Origin: an uncultured bacterium
GTDB taxonomy: Bacteria > Zhuqueibacterota > QNDG01 > DTFT01
Direction: 5' to 3'
Length of the DNA: 64,000 nucleotides
Assembly: GCA_963736115.1 (NCBI GenBank)
Contig: CAVTNR010000008.1
Location: 160,001 to 224,000 of the forward strand
Every line of letters starts with the position of its first letter. Within the stretch, counting starts at the first letter, position 1. The notes under the pieces are model-generated. The model saw only the letters and a list, made by a program, of their open reading frames with translations, had not been told where the DNA came from and made no database searches. Shown here in pieces: positions 4,513 to 63,243 of this stretch. Position numbers and translations under genes: made by a program.

Positions 4513-4872
4513 TGGTGGAGACGGTGGGAATTGAACCCACGTCCGAAAACAGAACACCCCGGAATACTACGTGCGTAGCCCTATCATTTGATCTTGCCCG
4601 GGGCACCCAAAGGGCTGGGATCCCAAGGCCAAGTCCGCTGTTGTCTCGCCGGACTTCCGCGGACATGAAGCCGGCCAGCCCGTCTTAAGCGACGCCCCTA
4701 TACGGCCCCGACAGGCGCGGGCCGCGAGGGACGGGTTGCCTATTTAACTAGGCAGCCATGGCATACGAGTAGTTGTTGCCATTTAATCTGTTCCCGGATT
4801 ATTTACCAGGGTCCAGGAACCTGGACACGCATTCCGAGACCTTACTGAATCCGTCGAATCCAGTTCGTCCCC
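4513..4872 (-). ncRNA. ssrA: tmRNA; tag peptide (A)GNNYSYAMAA at 4780-4748
   Basis: 5' GGGGACGAACTGGATTCGAC, 3' T-arm GTGGGTTCAATTCCCACCGTCTCCACCA, internal tag ORF ending AMAA-stop. Confidence 0.97.
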
Positions 4873-5029: not shown

Positions 5030-7012
5030 TCATTCCTTGTCCGTCTGGTTTTCCCCGAACTGAGTCTCGTAAAGGTTCGCGTACAGCCCAGCCTTCTCGA
5101 TCAGATCCCCGTGCGTCCCGGACTCGGCCACGCGGCCCCGGTCCAGCACCAGGATCATGTCCGCGGCCAGGATGGTGCTGAGCCTGTGCGCGATGACGAT
5201 GTTCGTGCGTCCGGCCATGAGCCGCTTCAGCGCCTCCTGGATGAGCGCCTCGGATTCGCTGTCGAGACTGCTCGTGGCCTCGTCGAGCACCAGGATGCGC
5301 GGGTCCTTCAGGATGACGCGGGCCAGTGCGAGCCTCTGCTTTTCCCCGCCGCTGAGGCGGTAGCCCCTTTCGCCGACCACGGTGTCGTACCGGTCCGGGA
5401 GGCCGGCGATGAAATCGTGTATGTTGGCCGCCTTCGCGGCCTCCTCGAGATCGGTCTGGCGAGCGTCGGGCCTGGCGTAGAGCAGGTTGGTCCGTATGGT
5501 GTCGTGGAACAGGTGCGTCTCCTGCGTCACCATGCCGATCTGTGCCGTCAGCGAGGCCAGAGTCGCTTCGCGGATGTCGACGCCGTCGAGGGTCACGCGA
5601 CCCTCGGTCGGGTCGTACAGCCTGGGAATGAGATAGGTCACCGTGGTCTTGCCCGCGCCGCTGGGCCCGACCAAAGCGGCGAGCTGTCCGGGTTTGACCC
5701 TGAAACTGATGTGTTCGAGCGCCAGACTCCGCGCCTGCGAAGCCGGCGTGGTTCCCGGTCCGCTCTTCGCGCCGGAGAATCCGGCCGCCTGTTTTGCTGC
5801 AGGCAGGGCCGGCTCATCGCCCGACAGGGCCGCGGCCGGGCCATCGGACCGTCCGTAACGCTGAACCTCGGTCAGCAGGCCCTCGGGCCTGACCTCGTAT
5901 CGGAAGGACACATCCTCGAAAGCGAGTTCGCCGGCGATTTTTTTCAGCTCGACCGCGCCCGGTTTTTCCCGGATGTCCGGCCGCATGTCGAGCACCTCGA
6001 ACACGCGCTCGAAACTGACCACGGAGGTCGCGAATTCGACCGGGTTGTTGGCCAGGCCCTGCAGGGACGCGTACAGCAGGGCGAGATAGGACCCGAAGGC
6101 CACGATGGTGCCGACCGTCAGGGACCCGGCCATGACCATGGCCCCGCCGAGCCCGTACACCAGGGCCGTTCCCACGGCGCTGACCAGGCCGATGAAAACC
6201 ATGAACGAGGCGCCCAGCACCGCGCGTTTCACGTCCAGGTCGGCCAGGGCCGAGGCCCTGCGGCTGAAGCGCTCCGTCTCCTCCGCGGCGCGGCCGAAGA
6301 GCTTCACCAGCAGGGCGCCGCCGATGTTCAGGGTCTCCGACATGGCCGCGTTCATGGACGCGTTGGCCTCCATCTGGCGGCGCGAGAGGTCCCGGAGCAG
6401 GCGCGCCAGCCGGCGGGAAACCGCGATGAGGAGCGGCAGGATCACGACGCTGACCGCGGTCAGCCGCCATTCCAGCGAGGCCATCACGGCGAGCACGGCC
6501 GCGCACTGAATCAGGTTCGTGGCAAATCCGGTGATGGTGTAGCTGATCGCGTTCTGCGCGCCCATCACGTCATTGTTCAGCCGGCTGATCAGTTCGCCGG
6601 AGCGGGTGTGCGTGTAGAACCGCAGGGACATTTTCTGCAGGTGGCCGTACAGGGCCGTGCGCAGGTCATAGGTCACGCCCTCGCCGATGGCCGCGTTGAT
6701 GCGTCTCTGCCACACCCGGAGCAGTCCGGCGGCGGCGGGCACGGCCAGCAGGGCGGCCGACAGGCCGACCAGCCGGCGGAGGTCGCCGGACGGGATGACG
6801 CGGTCGATCAGCTGACGCATGATCAGCGGCGTGACGATGCCGAGGCCGGAAGCCGCCAGGATCAGGAGGAAGAGGATGAGGATGCGGCCCCGGTAGGGCC
6901 TGGCGTAACCCAGGACCCGTTTCAGCAGGTTCCGGGTGATTTTCGGTTTTTCGCCCGAAGCATGCATGTATTCGCGCCAGCCCGTGCCGCGCATACCCAT
7001 TCCGAGGCCCAT
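5030..7012 (-). CDS. ABC exporter, fused TMD-NBD (MsbA-like)
   Basis: Six-TM region, GPSGAGKT, LSGGEKQR, ILVLDEATSSLD, AHRLST. Confidence 0.93.
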   Translation of the reverse strand: MGLGMGMRGTGWREYMHASGEKPKITRNLLKRVLGYARPYRGRILILFLLILAASGLGIVTPLIMRQLIDRVIPSGDLRRLVGLSAALLAVPAAAGLLRVWQRRINAAIGEGVTYDLRTALYGHLQKMSLRFYTHTRSGELISRLNNDVMGAQNAISYTITGFATNLIQCAAVLAVMASLEWRLTAVSVVILPLLIAVSRRLARLLRDLSRRQMEANASMNAAMSETLNIGGALLVKLFGRAAEETERFSRRASALADLDVKRAVLGASFMVFIGLVSAVGTALVYGLGGAMVMAGSLTVGTIVAFGSYLALLYASLQGLANNPVEFATSVVSFERVFEVLDMRPDIREKPGAVELKKIAGELAFEDVSFRYEVRPEGLLTEVQRYGRSDGPAAALSGDEPALPAAKQAAGFSGAKSGPGTTPASQARSLALEHISFRVKPGQLAALVGPSGAGKTTVTYLIPRLYDPTEGRVTLDGVDIREATLASLTAQIGMVTQETHLFHDTIRTNLLYARPDARQTDLEEAAKAANIHDFIAGLPDRYDTVVGERGYRLSGGEKQRLALARVILKDPRILVLDEATSSLDSESEALIQEALKRLMAGRTNIVIAHRLSTILAADMILVLDRGRVAESGTHGDLIEKAGLYANLYETQFGENQTDKE

Positions 7013-7064
7013 GATCTATCCCATGCAAAATTTTCGGATTAGGGAATCATATTCGTCAATAACC

Positions 7065-7171
7065 AGTTCATAGTTCATGATTCATAGTTCATAGTTGAAA
7101 ACAGAAAAGATTCTATCGGGATGAACCGTAAGCTTCTTTTCCATGAACTATGAACTATGAACCAGGAACTA
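7065..7171. repeat. Heptamer inverted-repeat element H1: (AGTTCAT)n-spacer-(ATGAACT)n
   Basis: Left arm 7065-7097, right arm 7143-7171 overlapping the stop codon of the adjacent gene. Confidence 0.9.
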
Positions 7172-7624
7172 TTTCTCGATCTTCACCACGGCCTTGCGGA
7201 TCAGGCCCTCGCCGCCCATGGGCGCGTGGCCGTCGGCCGGGAAGAACAGGGCGAAGGACCCGGCCTCTACCGTCTTCCAGGTCTGCGCGTCGTCCCGGAA
7301 GAAGACAATGTCCCTTTCCGCGTCGAAATCCGATTCCGGGGACAGGCAGCGGTCCAGGGGCTTCCACCCCATGACGTCGGCGCCGGACAGGACGAACTGG
7401 AGATCGATGTACCTGCGGTGGGCCTCGAGTCTGGCGCTCTGCCGGCCCTTGCCCTGGCCCGTGCTGATCAGGCAGAACATCCGGTCAGCGTCGATGTCGA
7501 TGCGGCCGTCCGCGGCGTCATCCCGCAGTTCCGTGCGCAGGAATGCGAAGGCGCGTTCCAAGAGCGGGTGGAGGGAGAAGTACGCTTCGGCGTTGTCGAT
7601 CTGGTCGGTTATGAATTGAGCCAT
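7169..7624 (-). CDS. YhcH/YjgK/YiaL family protein
   Basis: EAHRRYIDLQ, DIVFF, FALFFPADGHAP, IRKAVVKI motifs. Confidence 0.9.
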   Translation of the reverse strand: MAQFITDQIDNAEAYFSLHPLLERAFAFLRTELRDDAADGRIDIDADRMFCLISTGQGKGRQSARLEAHRRYIDLQFVLSGADVMGWKPLDRCLSPESDFDAERDIVFFRDDAQTWKTVEAGSFALFFPADGHAPMGGEGLIRKAVVKIEK

Positions 7625-7646
7625 GTATCGTTCCCCGTCTTTCTTG

Positions 7647-7839
7647 AGTTCATAGTTCATGGTTCATAGTTCATAGTTGAAAAGCGGATGGAGGCGGTAC
7701 TATCTATTCTCTTTTAAGTTGAGTTCATAGTTCATAGTTGAAAAAACCAAAAGGGGAAATAGTTCATGGAAAAAACGAGAGCGGACTGTTTTCATGATCT
7801 CTATTTTAACTATGAACCATGAACTATGAACCATGAACT
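7647..7839. repeat. H1 heptamer inverted-repeat element (compound)
   Basis: Arms at 7647-7679, 7722-7740 and inverted arm 7808-7839. Confidence 0.9.
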
Positions 7840-7844
7840 GTTTT

Positions 7845-10247
7845 TCAGTACTTCCCCGGCGCGAAGCCGAGGTAGGGGCTGGAATGATCGGTTTCCCTTC
7901 CTGCGCGGTATTTCAGGTACAGCATGGCCGAGTGGTGGTAGGTGACCGGGTAGTCCCGTATCAGGTAGGCCAGGGACCGGTAATCCTTCTTTTCCAGATC
8001 CGGTTCAGCCGTGAGAAGGGCTTCGAATGCCAGGCCTCCCAGTATCCCGTCCGGAATCACGATGAGACTGCGTCCACGGATCCAAGGCTCGACGGGCCTG
8101 ATCAGCGTTTTGTAGCACCAGAACGCGTCCTCCGCGTAACGGCCGTAGTCCATTTTCACGATGCCCTCCCGCACGCCGTGGACGCGGCGCTCCAGGATAG
8201 TATCCCTGGGCAGGCGCACGGTTTCGAACAGGCCGGCCGTGATGACGAATATCGTGACGAAGCGGTCTCCGATGAAATATTCCACGAGCGCGTCTTCGGG
8301 TTTCAAGAGCCTTTTCCGCAGGTCCTCCACGGTGACGGTATACGTGCCGTACCGCAGGCTGAGAAATTCCGGGTATTCCCTGTCGAACCGGCCGATGATT
8401 TCGTCCCATTCGCGTTTAATCTTGAACCGGCGCGCTTCCAGGGACTTCAGGCGGCTGTCGTCCGCCGCCGTCCCGTTCCCCATCTCGTCCCGGATGACCT
8501 TTTTGCAGTCCCCGAATTCGATCCGAAGCCGGTTCTCCTTCTCAATCAGGTCGGCAGGGACTCTGCCAAGGCGCATGGCCTGCTTGTCCATGACCGACCG
8601 CATCTGGATAAAGACCTTGCTCTTTTCGGAAAAGAAGAAAGCTTTTTCCTTGAACCCCTCATTCCCGGTCAGCCGGTGGAGCTCGAGCGCCGTTTCGACC
8701 CCATGTTCGAATATAAAACGGTAATCCGAGGCCAGATCGAGCCTCGGCTCGATGGACAGCATGCCTCCGCCGATACGGTCCATCAGCCGCATGGCCAGCT
8801 CCCAGTTCGTCAGGGCCGCCTCCAGGTCGGCCGGGGACCGGCTGACGCGGGTGTAGCGTTCCCCGAAGGTTTCCGCCTTCAGACGTAAAAGGGGGAGCAT
8901 TTGGAAGTCCACGTCCGGCCCGTCGATCTGCGGATTCGACGCAGGATCGAACCCGCTGAAGCCGGGAACCGCGGCGAGAACCGCGTCCTGCAGGGACCGG
9001 AGCGCGGCCGCATAATTCCCTTTTTTTCGATGCACGTTGGCAATGGCCTTGTGCGACTCCGAGGTCCAGTTGGAATACCGGCCCAGCTTTTCCAGCCGGA
9101 GATCGAGCGATTTACCGTAAAAAGCCAGAGCTTCGTCCAGTTCGCCGCGCCGGACCTTGACATGCCCGATCCGGAAAACCGCCTGCGCCGCCTGAAGCAA
9201 GGTCGATTCCCTGTTTTTGGCGCAGACAGCCAGGCATTGTCGGTAACAGCGCAGGGCCTCTTCCGTTTTTTTCTGCCGCCAGAAGATGTAGCCCATGTGG
9301 TTGTACACGCCCGCGACCGAAGGATGGTCCGGCCCCAGGGTCGTGACGTAGGCCGAGAGGGCCTTTTGCTGGAATGCCATTGCCTTCGGGAAGTCGTCTT
9401 CGAGCAGGGCCAGGGACCCGAGGTTCTCGTACGCACGGCCGGTTTCCGGATGCGCGTCGCCGAAATGCAGCTTGTTGATGTCGAGCGCCCGGCCGTAGAA
9501 AAGTCCGGCGTTTTCCCAGTCGTGCCGGCTCTTGTAGACATTCCCCATCTGCAGGTAGACCTGCGCGAGGTCCGGATGGTTTTCGTCGCGGCATTTCCGC
9601 AGTATGGCCAGTGCCGTGTCGAGGTAGGCCAGTGCGGTCGGATATCGGGTCCTGGCGATGTAGACTTTTCCGATGCGACGGTACGCCATGCCGAGAAGCG
9701 GGCCGTCCGCGGCCGCGAGGGGCAGGGCGCGGAAATAGCAGCTCAGCGCGCTGTCGAAATCGTTCCGTTCGAAACGGAGCTGTCCCAGTCCTGCCCAGGA
9801 GGCCGCGGTTTCCGGCCGGCCGGGGCCGAGCCGGGTATCGGCGATCTGCATGGCGCTGTCGAAGGCCGCATGCGCCGCGTCGAATTCCATGCTCTGAATC
9901 CGGTTCTCACCTATGCCGTTGAGGCATCGGACTACGCTGGACCAGTCCCTTTGCGCGGCGGCCAGCGTCATGGCCCTGCGGAAACTCAGTATGGACGGAC
10001 CGTGCCGGCTGTCGAGAAGCTCCTGCTCGGCCGTGACCATGAGGGAATGAATCCGATCCGAACCGGAACCATGCGCGGAGGGATCCGTTCCCGAGCCGCC
10101 GTGACGCGGAACGGGATTCGCGATCCAGAGCGCGACGAGGAGAAGGATGACCGCGAGAATCCAGGCCCTGGTATTGAAGGCCAAACAGACCTTTTTGAAA
10201 CCGGCCGTGAACCGGCGGCCGGCCCCGCGGCCCGGGGCCCGTTTCAT
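7845..10247 (-). CDS. Membrane-anchored TPR protein carrying only the N-terminal half of a CHAT domain
   Basis: N-terminal hydrophobic segment, many HPxxAxxYxxxG-type TPRs, then AFFFSEKSK, LVEYF, LIVIPDGILGGLAFEAL, YLIRDYPVTY, YLGFAP-stop; no catalytic His or Cys motif. Confidence 0.85.
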   Translation of the reverse strand: MKRAPGRGAGRRFTAGFKKVCLAFNTRAWILAVILLLVALWIANPVPRHGGSGTDPSAHGSGSDRIHSLMVTAEQELLDSRHGPSILSFRRAMTLAAAQRDWSSVVRCLNGIGENRIQSMEFDAAHAAFDSAMQIADTRLGPGRPETAASWAGLGQLRFERNDFDSALSCYFRALPLAAADGPLLGMAYRRIGKVYIARTRYPTALAYLDTALAILRKCRDENHPDLAQVYLQMGNVYKSRHDWENAGLFYGRALDINKLHFGDAHPETGRAYENLGSLALLEDDFPKAMAFQQKALSAYVTTLGPDHPSVAGVYNHMGYIFWRQKKTEEALRCYRQCLAVCAKNRESTLLQAAQAVFRIGHVKVRRGELDEALAFYGKSLDLRLEKLGRYSNWTSESHKAIANVHRKKGNYAAALRSLQDAVLAAVPGFSGFDPASNPQIDGPDVDFQMLPLLRLKAETFGERYTRVSRSPADLEAALTNWELAMRLMDRIGGGMLSIEPRLDLASDYRFIFEHGVETALELHRLTGNEGFKEKAFFFSEKSKVFIQMRSVMDKQAMRLGRVPADLIEKENRLRIEFGDCKKVIRDEMGNGTAADDSRLKSLEARRFKIKREWDEIIGRFDREYPEFLSLRYGTYTVTVEDLRKRLLKPEDALVEYFIGDRFVTIFVITAGLFETVRLPRDTILERRVHGVREGIVKMDYGRYAEDAFWCYKTLIRPVEPWIRGRSLIVIPDGILGGLAFEALLTAEPDLEKKDYRSLAYLIRDYPVTYHHSAMLYLKYRAGRETDHSSPYLGFAPGKY

Positions 10248-10258
10248 TCCGCGTGTTT

Positions 10259-11089
10259 TCACGGACGCAATTTCCGTTTCGCCGGCCGATGGCCGCGCTT
10301 CATCCGCGTCCATGCGAGGCCCGCGGCCAGGGCGGCGGCCGCGAGACACCCGGCCGCGGCGAGGCTTTTCCGGGTGCGGGACGATGACGGCTTCAAGCGC
10401 AGGGGTTCCACGCTCCCGGACTGGACCATGCCGGCCCAGAAAATCGGATTGGCGCTCCTGGCGTCCGCGTTTTCCAGCCAGGCCAGTTTCGCGTCCCGGA
10501 GTGCCACATGCTTTCTGCGTCCGGCCGCGAGCCCATCGTAGTACGCGGCCACCAGGGTTGACGATGACCTGTCGTCCACGGGCCAGAGGCTCATCAGAGC
10601 GCTGTTGCATCCGGTGAGCATGAAACAGCGTCCCAGGCTGAGGTATCCGTCTCCCTCGGCCAGCACGCCCGAGCCCGTGTTGCAGGCGCTGAGCACGGCC
10701 AGGTCCGCGGAGAATCGCATTTCGTAAATTTCGTGCATGTAGAGGACGCCGTCCTGGCCTGACCCGGCATCGGGCGAGAGGATGAGGCCGGTATCCGCGT
10801 TGTTTTTCTCGTCTACGACACAATGTGTGGCGATGTGGAGGATGCCGGCTTTCGGGGCTTCCCGCTTGAAGCGGCTTTCCGTGGCCCGGCCGCCGCAATA
10901 GGCCTTACCGTGCGCGCGGCCCGCGACCGCGGTGACTTCCCGTTCCGCCCAGCTCAGGCGTATCATGGCCGGCCTTGCGGAATCCGCGGGGGCCTTGCTT
11001 TTAATCGAACGGGAAACGGGACCGGAACCGCCGCAGGACCACAGCAGCAGGACCGCGGCTGAACCGATGAGGACAAGGGGGATTCGGAT
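10259..11089 (-). CDS. CHAT (caspase-like) catalytic half with lipoprotein-like signal and C-terminal TM helix
   Basis: LLLWSC lipobox-like, AEREV, ATESRF, ILHIATH, DGVLY..EIY, VLSACNTG, MSLWPVDD, NPIFWAG; start inferred at ATC 7 nt after AAGGAG. Confidence 0.85.
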   Translation of the reverse strand: MRIPLVLIGSAAVLLLWSCGGSGPVSRSIKSKAPADSARPAMIRLSWAEREVTAVAGRAHGKAYCGGRATESRFKREAPKAGILHIATHCVVDEKNNADTGLILSPDAGSGQDGVLYMHEIYEMRFSADLAVLSACNTGSGVLAEGDGYLSLGRCFMLTGCNSALMSLWPVDDRSSSTLVAAYYDGLAAGRRKHVALRDAKLAWLENADARSANPIFWAGMVQSGSVEPLRLKPSSSRTRKSLAAAGCLAAAALAAGLAWTRMKRGHRPAKRKLRP

Positions 11090-11150
11090 GACCGTTCTCC
11101 TTGAAGGGCGGGCCCCCGCTCGCCGCGGGAGTGCGGGGGAAAAGTTCCGG

Positions 11151-11951
11151 CTACGGACCGGGCGCGTTCCGCCGCAGGCGTCCGGCCAGTTCGGCGGATT
11201 CCCGGCTGAACGGTCCTCCCACGAGGCGGAGGGTGTCGAGCAGGGCCAAAGCGTCTTCGGTTTCACCCTGCCGGACGTGGCAGAGCGCCGCGTACCAGGC
11301 GGCCTGCAGTTCCCAGTCGCTTCCGCGGCTGAGCGCCGCTTCCCTGAGATGGGACAGGGCCGAGCGGGTGTCGTTCATGGCCAGGCTGGAGATTCCCGCG
11401 TAGAAATGCGCGGTCGCGTTCTCCGGTTCGCGGGCCAGAAGGGTTTCGAGCATGATACGGGAGCCCTGGTAATCGCCGGCATCGTATTCGGCCATCGCGT
11501 TTTCCAGCCATCCGGCCGGTTCCTGACTGCGGAACAGAGGGACGGTGTTCGGATACGGCTTGAAATAGGAGTCGAACAGGCTGTTCGTTTCCGGTCCGCG
11601 GGAAAGGACGGTCAGGAGCACAACGGCCGTAACCGGAATCAGCGCGGCCAAACCCAGAACCCAGACTCTGCCGCGCCTGCGTTCCGGAGTCCGGGACAGG
11701 CGCGACGCCCTCGCGCGAAGCTTGAGTTCCGAGACGGTTTTACCGGCAGTTACCGGATCCCCGGCCGCTTCCATGCCGTCCATGGCCTCGGAACAGAACA
11801 GGCAAGCCGCCAGGTGCTCCTCGATTTCGCGATGATCCGCGGCCGTGCCGCGGCCGGACGCGTAAGCCGCGAACTGGTCGAAGCTCAGGCATTGCGTCTG
11901 CCGGAATATGCCGCACACGGGCAGGGCCGGCTTCCGGACGTTTTTCTTCAT
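11151..11951 (-). CDS. Zinc-finger (ZAS) anti-sigma factor with TM helix and extracytoplasmic TPR-like domain
   Basis: HLAACLFC (HxxxCxxC), one TM helix, YFKPYPN, AHFYAGIS, AAWYAAL; ATGA overlap with the sigma gene. Confidence 0.85.
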   Translation of the reverse strand: MKKNVRKPALPVCGIFRQTQCLSFDQFAAYASGRGTAADHREIEEHLAACLFCSEAMDGMEAAGDPVTAGKTVSELKLRARASRLSRTPERRRGRVWVLGLAALIPVTAVVLLTVLSRGPETNSLFDSYFKPYPNTVPLFRSQEPAGWLENAMAEYDAGDYQGSRIMLETLLAREPENATAHFYAGISSLAMNDTRSALSHLREAALSRGSDWELQAAWYAALCHVRQGETEDALALLDTLRLVGGPFSRESAELAGRLRRNAPGP

Positions 11952-12514
11952 TTTTCCCCTCCCGCGAAACGGGTTGCCGCAATCTTCAGGTTTCTTCTTC
12001 CGTTCTGGATACTGCTTTTCACCTGCCTGACCGGGACGCCCATGATTTCCGCGATTTCCCGGTAGGACTTCCGTTTCAGGTAAAAGAGCTCGACGCACGT
12101 TCTCTGCTCCCCGTCCAGTCCGGCGAGCAGGGTCTCGCAGTCCGGAAGATCCCTGCCTGTAAGATTCAAAAAGTCCCCGTTTTCCACAACCGCGGCGTCC
12201 TTTTCCATCAGCGGCCTGAAAATCATTTTCAGGCGCGAGGCCTTGCGGAGCCGCATCAGGCAGTGGTTTTTCGTGACCGCGTGCAGCCAGGCCGGCACAT
12301 TGGAGACCCGGTGTTTCCCGGCCTCGGACAGGAGTTTGTGGAAGATGTCCATGACCGCGTCCCTGCATTCCTCCTCGTCTTTCAGGTATTTCCGGCACAC
12401 GAGGAAAATTGTGTGGCTGTAGCGCAGGAACCAGGATTCCACGGTAGCGGCGTCGGGTACGGTGAGCTCTTGGGAAGGTGAGGAAGATTCGGATTTACCG
12501 AATGGAATTCGCAT
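11948..12514 (-). CDS. ECF RNA polymerase sigma factor
   Basis: VCRKYLKDEEECRDAVMDIF, WLHAVTKNHC, SYREIAE, VKSSIQNGRRNL. Confidence 0.92.
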   Translation of the reverse strand: MRIPFGKSESSSPSQELTVPDAATVESWFLRYSHTIFLVCRKYLKDEEECRDAVMDIFHKLLSEAGKHRVSNVPAWLHAVTKNHCLMRLRKASRLKMIFRPLMEKDAAVVENGDFLNLTGRDLPDCETLLAGLDGEQRTCVELFYLKRKSYREIAEIMGVPVRQVKSSIQNGRRNLKIAATRFAGGEK

Positions 12515-12803
12515 GAAGTCCTGACAGTCGTTCTGGACGGGGAGAATACCTAAATTTATATTCCAAATGAACTTAAATGTAAAACTGTTTTTTGAAAAAT
12601 GCAACAGGAAAAATAATATTTATGGAATCCGGGGATTTCCCGCATCTATCATTTATGGACAGGACGCATTCGGATATCCGTTCCAGGTCCATGCAGAAGC
12701 AATAGAGGATGGATTTCCGGACTTCTTCGGCGGGAGAGGATCGTTCCGGAAAACCATACGTTGATACAACCCCCGGGAGGGGGGTCATAGGGAGAGAGAA
12801 AAA

Positions 12804-12842
12804 CCACCCGTCTGAGAGGGAGCAGGCGGGTGGCTTTTTTTT
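12804..12842. terminator. Likely bidirectional intrinsic terminator
   Basis: CCACCCGTCTG/CAGGCGGGTGG stem, T8 on the plus strand and T5 on the minus strand. Confidence 0.7.
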
Positions 12843-12876
12843 AATATCGGGTCAAATTTGTAATCTTGTCATAGAT

Positions 12877-13100
12877 AGTTCATGGTTCATAGTTCATAGT
12901 TCAGCTGAAGGTCCGAAATGCCGAGTCCCGCCCCCGGATCCAGTCCGTGGCAAGCCATGCGGGACGAGGCTTTCGGACATCCGTTAAGAAAAGTCCGATA
13001 GCCTCGCTGAGGATATGCTCGGCATATCGGACCTACAATGCTTTTTTTACTATGAACCATGAACTATGAACTATGAACTATGAACAATGAACCATGAACT
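12877..13100. repeat. H1 heptamer arms enclosing two REP-like palindromes (family P)
   Basis: Arms 12877-12903 and 13049-13100; GTCCGAWA..TTCGGAC hairpins at 12910-12980 and 12993-13036. Confidence 0.85.
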
Positions 13101-13104
13101 TTTT

Positions 13105-15802
13105 TTAAAGAGTAAACCAGTAACTCGCCTTCACCAGGAAAACGTTCTCCGCGGCGGCGGACGAGAGGGCGTCGAGGTTTTCGGACACCGATTGCTCCCA
13201 CAAGTCCGTCCAGCTCGTCCGGCCCTGCGACCACACCGCGTACAGCACCGATCCCGGCCTGTATTCCCATCTCAGCACAAGGTTCGAGCGGAATTCGCGG
13301 AAGCTGAAGGACGGGTCGTAGAATCTGTATTCCGGCCCGCCGGATTCGGTCACCCAAAGCGTCTGGTCCGCCTCAAGCCGGACGATTTCATCCTTTCCGA
13401 CCTCCCTGAAGCGTTCCTTCCCGGAAATTGCCAGAGGCGAGAGCACCCGCTTGTAATCCGAGTACCGTCCCGTGGAAATGAACGGGCTCCCGTAGAATTG
13501 CACCGAAAAGTCCGGAGTCGCGTACCAATTGAGCCGAAAGGTCGCGGACAGGGTTTTCTGGTCGATGCGGCCGAGCACGTACAGGGTTTCGCCCGGGGAC
13601 CCTTCCACGGTCGTGGCGTACTGCAGGTTCTGGATGTTCCGCGAATGGCTGAAGTCGGCGGACAAAGAAACGCGGTCCGCCGCGCGCCACGAGAATCCCG
13701 CGGACGGTTCGTGCAGTTCCGATACGCCGCCGCCGAAAAAGTGCGCGTGGTCCGAGATCCGGGCGCTGAAGGGTTTGCCGCCGTCGCTCGACACGCTCGC
13801 GGAGACGCAGATCAGGCCGGGCATGCGGAAGGCCGGGCCGCCCCTGAGCATGCGCGTGTCCGCGTACGGCCGCAGGTGGTTGAATCCCGCGTTGAAACCC
13901 CAGCGGTTGTGAAAGGCGCCGCCGAACGAAAGGCCGGTTCCGTCGCTGGTCGAAAGCCCGCCGAAGTCCCAGTTGTTCCACTGGCTGAAATAAACGGACC
14001 AGGAGCGCAGGATTTTGCCCGGGTCGGTCTGGCTGTATTCCACGGACGCGCTGTTCGCCAGCACGTCGGCCTGCTGCAGCCAGCCGATGTCGTTGAGGTC
14101 GAGTCCCGGCGAGTACCAGTGGAACGCGTTTTTCCACCGGAGCTTGCTGTTTCCGGCCCGGCCGAAAGACAGGAATCCGCCGTGGCCGGAAAGCGACTCC
14201 GCGAGGGAATCCACTGTGACGTGACCCGCGTCCGGCCGCTGAAAGAAGTGCACGGCTCCGGTCTGGGCCCGGAGCATGGCTTCCGCGTCCCCCGACAGCC
14301 GGCTGGCGAACACGCGCGCCTCGGCCAGGTAGTTCCGGTTCGCGAGATAATGGCTGAATTCGAGGCCGCCGGTCTGTGCAGATCGGGGCATGAAGCGGAG
14401 GTGCCGGTCGTCGATGATCCGGTTAACGGATGTCGCGATGCCGCCCAGGCTCGTGGTGCCCTTGTCCCAGTCCTTTTTCAGCCTGGCCATGACATAATTC
14501 GTGACCGGCTCGACCGCGGTTTTCTCCTCCCCGGAACCCGGGCCGCCGGGAGAGATGCGGGCCGTTTCCCTCTGCGTCACGCTCTGCAGAACGCCGAGCG
14601 AGAGCCCGTCCACGGTCTTGCCCGTGACCTTCACGGCGTTCAGAATGGTGGTGTTCTCCGGCATTTTAACGTAGCCGTCCGGCACGAAGGGCGTGTATGA
14701 CGGCGCGTGGCCGACACGGCGCGAGTAGAACAGATCGGCGCCGTCCCCTCCCGCGTCGAAGGTCATGAGGTTTCGGCCCTCCAGAAAGAAGGGCCGCTTC
14801 TCGGAGTAGAATGTCTCGAAGGCCGACAGGTTCATCACCGACGGGTCCGCCTCCACCTGGCCGAAGTCCGGGTTGAACGCGGCGTACGAGCGTGATGTCC
14901 GTGGTGAGCCCGATCTTCGCGTCCAGGCCCAGCATGCCCGACACGTCCGACCCGTCATGGAACGGGTCGCCCGGCGCCGCCGGTTTCGCGTCGATACGGC
15001 CCAGGCCGTAGGGCAGAATCTCGACGCGGCGCGAGCGTTTCAGCCCCTTGATGCCGCGCAGTTCGCCGATGTGGTAGAACCGGCCGTTGTTGTTGCGCGG
15101 AATGAGGTTCCACTGGTCCTCCTCCTGGTTCCGGTCCAGCCAGCGCCAGGCGTGCATGCCCCAGACCTGTTCCTCCTGGGGGCCGTAGCGGAGCTGGCTC
15201 AGGGGAATGCGGAACTCGGAGGTCCAGGCGGAGTCTTCCGTTCCGACTTTTCCCTCCCAGACCGCGTCCCAGTTCATGTCCCACTGGCAGTCGCGCTCCG
15301 CGTTCATCAGCAGAAGGTCGATCTTGCCGCCCCCGGCCGTGAGGTCGAATTCGAAGCCCTGGCGTTTCGACCCGTAGCTGTCGAAGCAGATGCCCACGAC
15401 GTCGCCCGTCATTTCGTCGCGCCGCGACACGAACCGGTGCATCAGGGACGGATCGTCGAAGGCGCGGATGGCGAAATAGACGTTGTCGTCGTCGTACAGG
15501 ATGTTCATCTCGGTTTTCGCCGTGGGCGGCGCGTTCTCGGTAGGAATCTGCATGAGAAAATCACCATGCCATTCGCCCTCGGCCCAGCAGGCGTCGTCGA
15601 GTTTTCCGTCGATCACGGGCGGAGGCGACTGAAATCGCCGGGTCTCGTACACGCGCACCGGGTACACGCGGCCGAAGCGGTTCCCGGGAGCCGGGTTCAG
15701 GCTGTCCGGCGCCTGCCCGGAAAGCGGAAAAGCGGCCGTGAAAAGGCCCGCGGCCGTCAGCAGGGCTGCGGGAACGGACAGGATGGGTCGGGTCGAACGC
15801 AT
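13105..15802 (-). CDS. DUF5916 / CBM9-like outer-membrane protein, one frameshift near 14890
   Basis: PVIDGKLDDACW, WDAVW, EFRIPLSQLRY in one frame; NPDFGQVEADP, EKRPFFLEG, LFYSRR, NLVLRWEYRPGS, KASYWF in the next. Confidence 0.85.
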
Positions 15803-16009
15803 CGGATCTCCTGGTCTGTTGGGATGAACAGTGTCCCTTCCGTGACAGGGGATAATATAAGCAACACGCTCATATCCGGCAAGTAAAAGGATGTAATAAA
15901 CTTCGGGTCCGCGGAATGGGAGAAAGGGCTTGATTTTATCGGAAGCGGGGGCTAATTTGACTTCGGGCGGCCGCATCCGCGGCGCCCGGTTTTCACAAGG
16001 AGGGTTGAT

Positions 16010-16483
16010 ATGAACAGTTACCGCATGCTTCCGGTCCTGGTTCTCAGCCTGGCCGTCACTGTCCCGGTCCTCGGACAGACGGCCGATTCCGCGGCTGTTC
16101 CGGCCGTGGTCCCGGACATCGTTTCCGAATCCGCTCCGGATTCGGTGCCGCCGAAAACCCCGATGCGTTCTCTCACCATAGAGAACAACACGGACGTTTT
16201 CACCTCGGTCCGCATCCGCATCCTGCCCGCGGATACGACAGCCGCCTCGCTGGAGATACCGGCCGGCGGGAAAGAGACGGCGCGCCTTCCGAACGGGAAA
16301 TACGTGGAACTGATCCGTTTCGGGTCCGATTCCACCGAGTACCGGTACGGCAAAGGCGAGGGATTCGAGCTGGCCGCCCCCGGGCCGAACCAGTGGATCG
16401 AGGCGACTCTGACGCTCGACGGCCTGGAGGAGGGCAATTACCGCCAGGACGACACGACTGCCGAGGAGTTTGAGGCTAAATGA
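16010..16483 (+). CDS. Secreted hypothetical protein
   Basis: AAGGAGG RBS, signal peptide, beta-rich body. Confidence 0.65.
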   Translation: MNSYRMLPVLVLSLAVTVPVLGQTADSAAVPAVVPDIVSESAPDSVPPKTPMRSLTIENNTDVFTSVRIRILPADTTAASLEIPAGGKETARLPNGKYVELIRFGSDSTEYRYGKGEGFELAAPGPNQWIEATLTLDGLEEGNYRQDDTTAEEFEAK

Positions 16484-16526
16484 CATCCGACCCCGGGGTC
16501 GATTTTACGAATAAGGAGAAACAACC

Positions 16527-61238: not shown

Positions 61239-61312
61239 TGGGGAGTCGTCCAATGGTAGGACATGCGGCTCTGGACCGTAGTATCGGGGTTCGAATCCCT
61301 GCTCCCCAGCCA
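61239..61312 (+). tRNA. tRNA-Gln(CTG)
   Basis: Cloverleaf, anticodon loop CT-CTG-GA, GTTCGAATC, encoded CCA. Confidence 0.95.
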
Positions 61313-61318
61313 AGCGTT

Positions 61319-61392
61319 GCGCCCGTAGCTCAATTGGATAGAGCATCTGACTTCGGATCAGAGGGTTGTGGGTTCGAGTCCCTCCGGGCGTA
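61319..61392 (+). tRNA. tRNA-Arg(TCG)
   Basis: TCTGA-CTTCGGA-TCAGA anticodon arm; CCA not encoded. Confidence 0.95.
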
Positions 61393-61407
61393 CGGTTGAA
61401 AGAGAAA

Positions 61408-61507
61408 AGTTCATAGTTCATAGTTCATGGTTCATAGTTGAGAAGAAGGGGAAATAGTAAGCCTCGGCTCTTTTTTTCTATGAACTATGAACTATCAACC
61501 ATGAACT
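61408..61507. repeat. H1 inverted-repeat element in tRNA spacer
   Basis: Arms 61408-61440 and 61478-61507. Confidence 0.9.
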
Positions 61508-61518
61508 GCTTTAAAAAT

Positions 61519-61591
61519 GGCGCGTTCGTCCAGAGGCCCAGGACGCCGGCCTCTCACGTCGGCAACACGGGTTCGAATCCCGTACGCGCTA
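61519..61591 (+). tRNA. tRNA-Glu(CTC)
   Basis: CCGGC-CTCTCAC-GTCGG anticodon arm, GTTCGAATC. Confidence 0.93.
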
Positions 61592-61598
61592 CGACAAA

Positions 61599-61693
61599 AG
61601 TTCATGGTTCATAGTTCAAAGTTCATAGTAAGAGAGGGCAACATCGGACCCCTTCGTTTTCCGCTATGAACCATGAACTATGAACCATGAACT
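61599..61693. repeat. H1 inverted-repeat element in tRNA spacer
   Basis: Arms 61599-61629 and 61665-61693. Confidence 0.9.
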
Positions 61694-61705
61694 GGTTTTT
61701 CTCTT

Positions 61706-61779
<74 letters not shown>

Positions 61780-61794
61780 CGGTTGGAAGAAAAA

Positions 61795-61882
61795 GTTCAT
61801 AGTTCATGGTTTATAGTTCATAGTTAAAAAGAGTTTTTCAAATGTCTTTCCGACTATGAACCATGAACTATGAACTATGAAC
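61795..61882. repeat. H1 inverted-repeat element overlapping the tadA start region
   Basis: Arms 61795-61825 and 61853-61882. Confidence 0.9.
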
Positions 61883-62394
61883 CTGCAAAAGAGTCGGAGT
61901 CCGCGGATTCCGACTCGGTGTGGATGCGCTGGGCGCTCCGGGAGGCGGAAAAGGCCTTCGAGGAAGGCGAGGTTCCGGTCGGGGCCGTGATCGTGTCCGA
62001 AAACCGGATCATCGGACGGGCGCACAACCAGACGGAAACCCTGCAGGATCCGACGGCGCACGCCGAGATGATCGCCATTTCAGCCGCGGCCAATACGCTC
62101 GGATCCTGGCGGCTCGAGGGTTGCACGATGTACGTCACCCTGGAGCCGTGCGCGATGTGCGCGGGCGCGGTCGTTCTGTCGCGCATCCGGCGCGTGGTGT
62201 TCGGGGCTTTTGATCCGAAGGCCGGGGCATGCGGATCCCTGCGCAACCTGGTGCAGGACGCGAGACTGAACCACCGGGTCGAACTCACCTCCGGCGTTCT
62301 GGACGCGGAGGTTTCGAACCTGATGAAGGCGTTCTTTCACAATCTGCGCGATGTCAAACGAAGCCGCAGGCAGGCCGGCGGGGAAGAGAATTAG
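61870..62394 (+). CDS. tadA: tRNA adenosine(34) deaminase; exact start uncertain
   Basis: GEVPVGAV, DPTAHAEM, YVTLEPCAMCAGA, DPKAGA.GS, LNH. Confidence 0.95.
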   Translation: MNYEPAKESESADSDSVWMRWALREAEKAFEEGEVPVGAVIVSENRIIGRAHNQTETLQDPTAHAEMIAISAAANTLGSWRLEGCTMYVTLEPCAMCAGAVVLSRIRRVVFGAFDPKAGACGSLRNLVQDARLNHRVELTSGVLDAEVSNLMKAFFHNLRDVKRSRRQAGGEEN

Positions 62395-62438
62395 TCCTTC
62401 CCGCGCGGATGGAAACCCATCCGTCCGGTTCGTATTCC

Positions 62439-62526
62439 GGAGAGGTGCGAGAGTGGTTGAATCGGACGGTCTCGAAAACCGTTGTCCCTATAAACGGGAC
62501 CGTGGGTTCGAATCCCACCCTCTCCG
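62439..62526 (+). tRNA. tRNA-Ser(CGA)
   Basis: ACGGT-CTCGAAA-ACCGT arm, long variable arm. Confidence 0.95.
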
Positions 62527-62534
62527 CTTGATCA

Positions 62535-62626
62535 AGTTCATAGTTCTGAATTCATAGTTCATAGTTTTTAAGATGTCATCCCCGCGAAACTTGTCCCGGA
62601 CCTGATCCGGGAGCGGGGATCCAGGG
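62535..62626. repeat. H1 single arm followed by family R palindrome
   Basis: AGTTCAT repeats 62535-62565; GTCATCCCCGC..GCGGGGATCCAG 62576-62626. Confidence 0.8.
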
Positions 62627-62670
62627 GAGCGGGCGGGGAGGAAGAAGTCAGGCGGATTTGACAGTAACCC

Positions 62671-62758
<88 letters not shown>

Positions 62759-62764
62759 AATACA

Positions 62765-62858
62765 GTTCATGGTTCATCGTTCATAGTTTATAGTTAAAAG
62801 AAGAGTCCTTTCAGCTTTGGGGATGTCATCCCCGCACTCTTCCAGAGGGGATCCGGGG
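62765..62858. repeat. H1 single arm followed by family R palindrome
   Basis: Arm 62765-62795; GTCATCCCC..GGGGATCCGG 62825-62858. Confidence 0.75.
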
Positions 62859-62889
62859 CGGGGCGGAAAAAACACTCGACGTTTAAAAT

Positions 62890-62962
62890 GGGGCAGTAGC
62901 TCAGCTGGGAGAGCGGTACGTTCGCAACGTACAGGCCGGCGGTTCGATCCCGCTCTGCTCCA
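62890..62962 (+). tRNA. tRNA-Ala(CGC)
   Basis: GGGGCAG acceptor with G3-U70, GTACG-TTCGCAA-CGTAC arm. Confidence 0.95.
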
Positions 62963-62970
62963 CATCATGA

Positions 62971-63243
62971 GGCCGTGCTAGACGGGGAGCCTAGCGGTGC
63001 CCTGTAACCCGCAATCCGCTCCAGCAGGGTCGAATTCCCTTCCAGAGACTGCGCAAGAACCACTCCCTGATGGCGCGCCGGCGTTGATGGTCCGAGCTCC
63101 TGCGCAATGGGAGGCCGCCGAACCCCGTCAGGACCGGAAGGTAGCAGCGGTAAGCGGTTTGAACATGTGCCGCGGAACCGCTTGGCCGGAGCCGGCCGCC
63201 ACTGGGGATTGGCGCTTCAGGAATCGAAGGCGGGCGCACAGCC
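62971..63243 (+). ncRNA. ffs: Large bacterial SRP RNA (with Alu domain)
   Basis: 5' GCCGTGCTAGACGGGGAG..GCGGTGCCCTGTAACCCGCAATCCGC, helix 8 TCAGGACCGGAAGGTAGCAGC, 3' GCACAGCC pairing with the 5' end; upstream of dnaX. Confidence 0.93.

Follow-up and report, generated by a model that had tools for sequence, protein, structure and literature searches.

Two systems have been described in which a protease combining tetratricopeptide repeats (TPR) with a CHAT domain is linked to a sigma factor. In DdvA, a zinc-binding anti-sigma domain, a transmembrane (TM) segment and the TPR-CHAT portion lie in one canonical chain. Its description presents DdvA as a transmembrane anti-sigma factor tied to a sigma factor of extracytoplasmic function (ECF), whose periplasmic TPR-CHAT portion, with its His/Cys dyad, is proposed to be its own site-1 protease (PMC11506125). 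Csx29, the TPR-CHAT protein of Craspase, is cytoplasmic, single-chain, canonical in order and activated by RNA via Cas7-11. It links a TPR-CHAT protease to the cleavage of a sigma inhibitor, in that Csx29 cleaves Csx30 and an ECF-like sigma factor is relieved, as stated in that report (PMC10028731). Here a locus was analysed in a stretch of 64,000 nucleotides from an uncultured bacterium (contig CAVTNR010000008.1; the whole stretch is called the window), in which two adjacent genes, CHATc and TPR-CHATn, carry complementary parts of a CHAT domain in rotated order. These genes probably encode the two chains of one periplasm-facing, membrane-anchored, circularly permuted TPR-CHAT caspase-like protease that is an obligate heterodimer.

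The canonical exported TPR-CHAT proteins of Bacteroidota provide the comparison at the sequence level. The 1000-aa open reading frame (ORF) L008:3727-6729 (L numbers denote loci, P numbers proteins) resembles the products of the locus in its signal, TPRs, helical middle, CHAT His and Cys residues, TM segment and basic tail, is 27% identical to the TPR-CHATn protein (P0001) and 39% identical to the CHATc protein (P0002), and has an ECF sigma/anti-sigma pair adjacent to it. It differs in being one chain of the order TPR-CHATn-CHATc-TM, in having its sigma and anti-sigma genes convergent and in having no TM hairpin. Caspases and separase likewise have the caspase-hemoglobinase fold and the His/Cys dyad, and mature caspases are two chains of one fold, cut by proteolysis after the Cys-bearing strand with the native order kept. 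In the window, by contrast, the parts are in rotated order, and the break is a genetic one that is read as following the first core strand. The sole solved relative found by sequence was DdvA (PDB 8ROT/8RW5, E 2.5e-7); Csx29 gave no sequence-level match in the search of solved structures. A literature search for the CHAT domain with circular permutation returned no description of a permuted CHAT, and DdvA was the only periplasmic TPR-CHAT that it returned.

A CHAT domain divided between two adjacent genes

Comparison of both proteins with the CHAT profile (Pfam PF12770, length 289, cut-off 24 bits) gave the complementary partial matches that had been expected from the original prediction. Residues 44-226 of P0002 matched profile positions 102-289 of 289 with 154.2 bits, and residues 710-793 of P0001 matched positions 6-82 of 289 with 21.9 bits, slightly under the cut-off; jointly, the two proteins span positions 6-289. 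When aligned by BLASTP to the one-ORF relative L008, residue 798 of P0001 corresponded to residue 753 of L008 and residue 33 of P0002 to its residue 759. Because these alignment ends adjoin, the halves abut without overlap to within about 3 residues, and nine further one-ORF relatives gave the same adjoining map. The claim that the halves are complementary and do not overlap was thus borne out by both the profile and the alignments, and every element that had been listed for the two genes was found in its place. The CHAT domain does not form a single contiguous stretch of one chain here, being carried by two genes in rotated order. P0002 scored as CHAT-positive with the His-Cys dyad H89 (ATH) and C136 (SAC), which would be catalytic by analogy with the CHAT/caspase dyad as given in the DdvA report (PMC11506125). 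No second CHAT copy or leftover CHAT fragment was detected in the window at E <= 1e-3.

The two genes are the last of four consecutive genes on the minus strand, in the order ECF sigma factor, anti-sigma factor, a 276-codon ORF (CHATc) and an 800-codon ORF (TPR-CHATn). The features of the locus are as follows.

10259..11089, minus strand: CHATc gene; signal peptide, perhaps of a lipoprotein, caspase-like core starting at helix 1, His/Cys dyad, C-terminal TM, basic tail
10823..10825, minus strand: His89 codon (ATH motif), presumed catalytic His, invariant in 11/11 family members
10682..10684, minus strand: Cys136 codon (LSAC motif), presumed catalytic Cys, invariant in 11/11 family members
10307..10363, minus strand: C-terminal TM of CHATc, aa 243-261, from a hydropathy scan, followed by the basic tail RMKRGHRPAKRKLRP
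7845..10247, minus strand: TPR-CHATn gene, 800 aa; basic N-terminus, signal-anchor TM, TPR array, helical middle region, first CHAT part
10110..10166, minus strand: N-terminal TM of TPR-CHATn, aa 28-46, AWILAVILLLVALWIANPV, from a hydropathy scan
7848..7880, minus strand: C-terminal segment PYLGFAPGKY, read as the first strand of the caspase-like core; G794, F795, A796, P797 and Y800 invariant in 8/8
11097..11102, minus strand: Shine-Dalgarno-like AAGGAG, 7 nt ahead of the ATC at 11089
11151..11768, minus strand: anti-sigma factor gene, 205 aa; HxxxCxxC zinc-finger motif, one TM, small periplasmic TPR domain
11948..12604, minus strand: ECF-type sigma-70 factor gene, with Pfam Sigma70_r2 and r4_2; true start uncertain

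P0002 (276 aa) reads, in order, IRIPLVLIGSAAVLLLWSC, a linker, LSWAEREV, ILHIATH, LSAC, PIFWAG, the TM segment and the basic tail. The lipoprotein-like signal that had been attributed to it was upheld as a signal peptide and is only possibly that of a lipoprotein, the LWSC of the window being atypical by the lipobox rule and a good match being present only in L002 (LAGC). P0001 matched TPR_12 of Pfam with 167.7 bits and runs through LIVIPDG to PYLGFAPGKY at its C-terminus, the last residues before the stop codon being SSPYLGFAPGKY. In NCBIfam no family was found for P0002, and P0001 matched generic TPR models only. The sigma protein exceeded the NCBIfam sigma70-ECF cut-off (62.3 bits against 42.9), and the anti-sigma protein matched TPR_16 and TPR_19 of Pfam. 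The CHATc and TPR-CHATn genes are separated by 11 nt and are probably co-transcribed. Scanning 7500-13100 for promoters and terminators produced no decisive signal, with 5 terminator-like sites observed against 6.9 expected.

The codon at 11089 is ATC rather than ATG, GTG or TTG, and AAGGAG stands 7 nt ahead of it. Common to the window, L001 and L002 is TTCAAGGAGAACG..C and, after it, ATC CGA ATC CCC CTT GTC CTC (window 11087-11102 on the minus strand, L001:3324, L002:1799), with proteins only 58-87% identical. No ATG, GTG or TTG precedes the CHATc signal peptide of the window except GTG 11266, which lies inside the anti-sigma gene; the upstream stretch of L001 has no ATG or GTG, and its sole canonical codon is a TTG within the hydrophobic core of the signal peptide. 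More distant members have an ATG and signal peptide at the same place. ATC 11089 is the likely and most economical start of CHATc on this sequence comparison, because AAGGAG/ATC is conserved, canonical alternatives are wanting and the distant members place their ATG at the same position. Public models miss the CHATc signal peptide because the likely start is ATC; the NCBI model of the L001 protein begins at an internal Met (P0116, 235 aa) and is without a signal peptide. For TPR-CHATn both ATG 10247 and ATG 10313 are possible starts. The latter (10311-10313, minus strand; MDADEAR...) lies 22 codons upstream and would give a 55-nt overlap with the end of CHATc; P0003-P0005 use this start, and L001 has ACA at the position equivalent to 10247.

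Conservation of the split and permuted single-chain relatives

The same break and order were found in other genomes, as had been proposed as a check. When one genome was scanned for each species, 364 stretches were confirmed; of these, the best 80 were retained as loci and classed by tblastn with both halves, using a threshold of E <= 1e-3 for CHATn. In 6/80 loci (L001-L004, L006, L007) CHATc and CHATn shared a strand, with CHATn 1.3-1.7 kb further downstream; 34/80 had the canonical order, one had CHATn on the opposite strand (L011), one was tandem (L012), and 38/80 had no CHATn match at the threshold. The last group includes L005 and L034, whose ORF maps show sigma, anti-sigma and CHATc genes and then a TM-plus-TPR ORF that runs off the contig end, and which were accordingly counted as permuted. 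The seven best-scoring of the 80 loci are therefore all permuted, as is L034, and the order occurs as two ORFs in the window, L001, L002, L004, L005 and L007. At the break, the two ORFs are 1 nt apart in L007, 38 nt in L004 and 42 nt in L005, and overlap by 4 nt in L002.

Single-chain proteins of the same rotated order were also found. The single ORFs of L003 (1948-4959) and L006 (5938-9030) consist of a signal peptide, CHATc, a TM, a basic loop of 4-9 residues, a second TM, the TPR array, the helical region and CHATn, and end in GFAPVVFHH or GFAPIEY; CHAT is thus in one chain in these loci, yet still non-contiguous. A phmmer scan with P0002 gave 90,122 matches, and in the best 150 there were seven long proteins (946-1222 aa) with CHATc N-terminal. 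All seven showed signal peptide, CHATc, TM, basic loop, TM and TPR, and ended in G(F/L)AP plus 3-13 residues. Thirteen short matches were also read: 5 were of the split type (signal, CHATc, TM, stop), 1 was ambiguous, 2 were fragments of single-chain forms, and the other 5 opened with an xFAPxF strand and were N-truncated canonical proteins. Single-chain permuted orthologues include L003, L006, P0288, P0298, P0310, P0346 and P0379; for P0254 and P0255, a single ORF runs through CHATc, TM, loop, TM, TPR and CHATn.

These single-chain rotated forms, in L003, L006 and the database proteins, indicate that the family consists of TPR-CHAT proteins that are circularly permuted and contain a TM hairpin. 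Their order is rotated and the old termini are linked, P0254 and P0255 being one ORF and P0001 and P0002 adjoining on the canonical L008. The C-terminal TM of CHATc is the counterpart of the first hairpin TM in the single-chain forms and the N-terminal TM of TPR-CHATn that of the second; hydropathy and charge also fit a hairpin, with a basic tail after the CHATc TM and a basic N-terminus before the TPR-CHATn TM. From these layouts, the window copy, like those of L001, L002, L004, L005 and L007, is read as broken secondarily in the cytoplasmic loop of the hairpin. The original prediction had described a split and reordered protease and overlooked the circular permutation common to the whole family.

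The split proteins are well conserved. Word-indexed searches returned seven non-self close homologues of P0001 (P0003-P0009; 49-86% identity, 715-829 aa), the next match falling to 26%, and seven short homologues of P0002 (P0115-P0121; 40-88% identity, 234-285 aa). All eight TPR-half proteins terminate at GFAPxxY, and H85, H89 and C136 are invariant in 11/11 catalytic halves. The ratio of nonsynonymous to synonymous substitution rates (dN/dS) was 0.22 for CHATc and 0.31 for TPR-CHATn against L001, at dS of about 0.36, and 0.30 and 0.45 against L002; it ranged over 0.22-0.39 and 0.31-0.46, respectively, and stayed below 0.5 up to dS of about 1. In the last 100 codons of TPR-CHATn it was 0.41-0.45. 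Both genes are under purifying selection.

These data bear on two explanations that would make the arrangement trivial. The genes could be decaying remnants of two tandem canonical TPR-CHAT genes, and tandem canonical copies do exist in relatives (two CHATc matches each in L012 and L021), while the CHATc frame of the L034 copy is broken. Pseudogenes are nevertheless highly improbable here: both window ORFs are intact, dN/dS remains low, the dyad is invariant, the homologues have identical termini down to 49% identity, and leftover CHAT fragments are absent elsewhere in the window. Decay, which had been named as an outcome that would overturn the prediction, is thus contradicted. A chimeric join or rotated contig, arising in assembly or binning, might be suspected in a window that comes from an uncultured-organism assembly and has a neighbouring CBM9/DUF5916 gene with an apparent frameshift. 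That origin has next to no probability, given that order and break recur in the independently assembled L001, L002, L004, L005 and L007, as well as among JGI, NCBI, ENA and Logan proteins, and that the break consists of a stop codon and a start codon within the loop of the TM hairpin and does not coincide with a repeat. The split and the reversed order are real, conserved features, and are neither an assembly artefact nor decay.

Two other loci showed variant arrangements. L034, a Calditrichota locus of permuted order (region 5908-7069), has its CHATc frame broken between 6117 and 6196. In L011, from a Bacteroidota metagenome-assembled genome, CHATc (5773-6552, plus strand) has no TM tail and follows sigma and anti-sigma genes, and TPR-CHATn (7090-9504, minus strand; 804 aa) is convergent with it and ends in GALIMSGALRP at the same fold position. 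L011 belongs to the other main clade, and its CHAT may have been split independently at the same point. Stop read-through or frameshifting that would yield one chain was rejected, because the frames of the two genes differ in the window, L004 and L007 and the offset is not consistent. A continuation of translation from the anti-sigma gene into CHATc was rejected as well; it is in frame in L001 and not in the window.

The history of the permutation was addressed with a tree of the CHATc part (38 rows). An alignment of 117 rows (A7) was dropped, with TPR-CHATn rows misplaced at 12-15% identity over 1841 columns; offline MAFFT trials showed that more single-chain anchors were required, which led to alignment A8. 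In the 38-row tree the window groups with P0115-P0118, all split, with support 100/99, and the single-chain P0254, P0262 and P0268, together with P0255, fall within the same 94/92 clade. The single-chain P0298 is sister to the split trio P0258, P0121 and P0256. Three changes between fused and split states are needed on the maximum-likelihood tree, of which well-supported branches force only one, and monophyly of all permuted rows was not rejected (approximately unbiased (AU) test, p = 0.246). The simplest reading of these sequences would be that the permutation arose once and that fission or fusion then occurred more than once, with either the fused or the split form as the possible starting state. 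In the general model, circular permutation arises by duplication followed by loss at both ends. The locus is like this model in having new termini inside the old domain and the old termini joined, TM to TM, and in the tandem canonical genes of the relatives L012 and L021, and unlike it in that the intermediate was not found among the loci here.

Predicted assembly of the two chains

To determine whether the two halves are predicted to bind, a complex was modelled from CHATc residues 24-236 and TPR-CHATn residues 440-800, each with its own small alignment (11 and 10 rows). The complex scored 0.80 (runs 0.80, 0.80 and 0.79) against 0.00 for the best of three controls; the score mark, whose calibration holds only roughly with alignments of this size, was reached by 116/157 solved complexes and 2/215 mismatched pairs. 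The runs shared at least 80% of contacts, with a partner predicted local distance difference test score (pLDDT) of at least 76 and an interface of 214-250 contacts. Residues 786-800 of TPR-CHATn contacted CHATc 59-67 and 80-89, the latter being the strand that ends in the catalytic His. In the caspase topology the first strand is placed between the second and third, and the GFAP segment is read as the first core strand supplied in trans. Reconstitution of one CHAT domain from both halves, which had been anticipated, was thus reproduced in the model; the prediction supports binding of the two halves and does not show it.

A single-chain orthologue gave a consistent picture. The AlphaFold2 (AF2) model of P0254 (95-row alignment) had a pLDDT of 87.9 and a predicted template modelling score (pTM) of 0.82, with CHATc blocks at 86-98 and the C-terminal YVGFA as a beta-strand (994-998), and was low-scoring only at the post-signal linker (18-34) and the second TM and linker (259-299). 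In P0001, the TPR array and helical region are N-terminal to CHATn, and they may pack on the CHAT domain as in TPR-CHAT proteases of the separase, Csx29 and DdvA type. An earlier AF2 model of P0254 (23-row alignment A6), with good TPRs and a pLDDT of about 30-60 in CHATc and the C-terminus, was rejected as unusable for the CHAT fold. A Foldseek search of the P0254 model against the PDB returned TPR proteins only (KLC1, designed CTPR, LGN and others) and was uninformative on CHAT.

The proposed assembly would proceed as follows. CHATc would be translated from the ATC, exported via its N-terminal signal peptide and held by its C-terminal TM, and TPR-CHATn would insert N-in through its signal-anchor TM. 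In the periplasm, YLGFAPGKY would pack on CHATc 59-67 and the His-bearing strand 80-89, completing the sheet, and the remaining CHATn would pack against the CHATc helices. The product would be an obligate heterodimer equivalent to the single-chain enzyme. The anatomy, its conservation, the purifying selection and the predicted interface are computed; that the chains assemble in vivo and that ATC serves as the start is inferred, as is the biological role.

The two products might instead act independently: the short one would then be a minimal CHAT protease working by itself, and the long one a scaffold of TPRs that retains a vestigial stub of CHAT. The Pfam cut-off is not reached for CHAT in P0001, and the public names, 'CHAT domain-containing protein' and 'tetratricopeptide repeat protein', treat the two as unrelated. 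Independent function is very improbable, however: the stub and C-terminus are among the best-conserved parts of P0001, with GFAP and Y800 invariant in 8/8 and the last 100 codons constrained as given above, the predicted interface is specific against the controls, and both parts always co-occur in order.

The original prediction had gone further, to a two-subunit protease activated when a TPR 'sensor' docks on the catalytic subunit. Its first part stands, in that the chains are split, conserved, complementary and predicted to reassemble; its second part, activation by docking, does not. Under that proposal the catalytic subunit would be inactive alone and docking would be the signal-dependent step. 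CHATc without the N-terminal CHAT segment is indeed incomplete alone, the chains are exported separately, and the split is kept in several lineages. Against this, same-order single-chain orthologues imply that separability is not required for function, a large interface that includes a core segment is typical of co-folding rather than of reversible docking, and genes 11 nt apart or overlapping suggest stoichiometric co-expression. Regulated docking is therefore considered unlikely. An obligate, constitutively assembled two-chain enzyme is more likely, because single-chain orthologues exist, the interface is large and the C-terminal segment packs on the catalytic half.

Several points weigh against the heterodimer and the history and role attached to it. 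The CHAT match of P0001 is sub-threshold (21.9 bits against 24), the conservation behind the ATC start covers only three related genomes, and the CHATc frame is broken in L034. The complex pass may reflect model memory of single-chain CHAT structures, its calibration is rough with 11- and 10-row alignments, and the strand order was derived from the interface list, DSSP and the caspase topology. The trees are poorly resolved, a single permutation origin being not rejected (AU p = 0.246), and sigma and/or anti-sigma genes are convergent in canonical relatives, so that the regulatory link is one of neighbourhood. All of the evidence is computational.

The sigma factor neighbourhood and what the permuted family means

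Every permuted locus (L001-L007, L011, L034) has its sigma and anti-sigma genes directly upstream, on the same strand. In the canonical relatives L008, L010, L015, L028 and L043, the sigma and/or anti-sigma genes are convergent with the TPR-CHAT gene, being downstream of it and on the other strand; both were detected only in L008. Compared with DdvA, the window has no one-protein layout: the anti-sigma factor is a separate protein of 205 aa with a small TPR domain only, and the TPR-CHAT is permuted and split. As a tentative guess by analogy, the protease could act by signal-dependent cleavage of the periplasmic part of the co-encoded anti-sigma factor, releasing the ECF sigma factor. This is proposed because a small anti-sigma factor with periplasmic TPRs is always encoded just upstream, and by analogy with DdvA and Csx29-Csx30. 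It is also conceivable, though doubtful, that assembly is itself a point of control, the catalytic chain being exported without its first core strand and the sensor chain that donates the strand being exported separately. A signal (envelope damage, for example, or a phage component that binds to the TPRs) could then delay, reverse or compete with strand donation in the periplasm and so gate anti-sigma cleavage. If so, repeated fission and fusion at the hairpin loop would represent lineages switching between constitutive and assembly-gated control.

Other observations were made in the window. A CBM9_1/DUF5916 gene is seemingly interrupted by a frameshift at about 14880-14960 (minus strand; ORFs 14666-16486 and 13105-14958), the CBM9 part and DUF5916 (profile 46-562/572) being in different frames that overlap near ACGCTCGTACGCCGCG; the interruption is either a pseudogene or an assembly error. 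A tmRNA gene (4513-4872, minus strand; Rfam 186.8 bits) encodes the tag peptide GNNYSYAMAA, and a cluster of seven tRNAs (61239-63241, plus strand: Gln, Arg, Glu, Arg, Ser, Ser, Ala) is directly followed by the large signal recognition particle (SRP) RNA. The region of about 1000-2500 has a G+C of about 0.47, compared with about 0.62 elsewhere, and contains a 215-aa ORF (1297-1944) with no Pfam match as well as an ORF (1989-2681) that corresponds to the C-terminal end of a penicillin-amidase-like protein (profile 477-674/675 only).

The finding matters mainly for protein evolution, annotation and split-protease design. It represents a natural circular permutation with new termini inside a catalytic caspase-like core, in which the first core strand would be supplied by the opposite end of the protein or by a second chain. 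One-chain and two-chain versions in a single family provide a ready-made system for the study of gene fission and fusion and for split-protease design. Current annotation loses the link between the halves, the TPR half being named only 'tetratricopeptide repeat protein' and the catalytic half being called from an internal Met, as in P0116. Besides DdvA and Csx29-Csx30, the locus would be a third arrangement of a TPR-CHAT protease with an ECF sigma factor and its inhibitor, and it lends weight to the view that CHAT proteases recur as triggers for the release of sigma factors.

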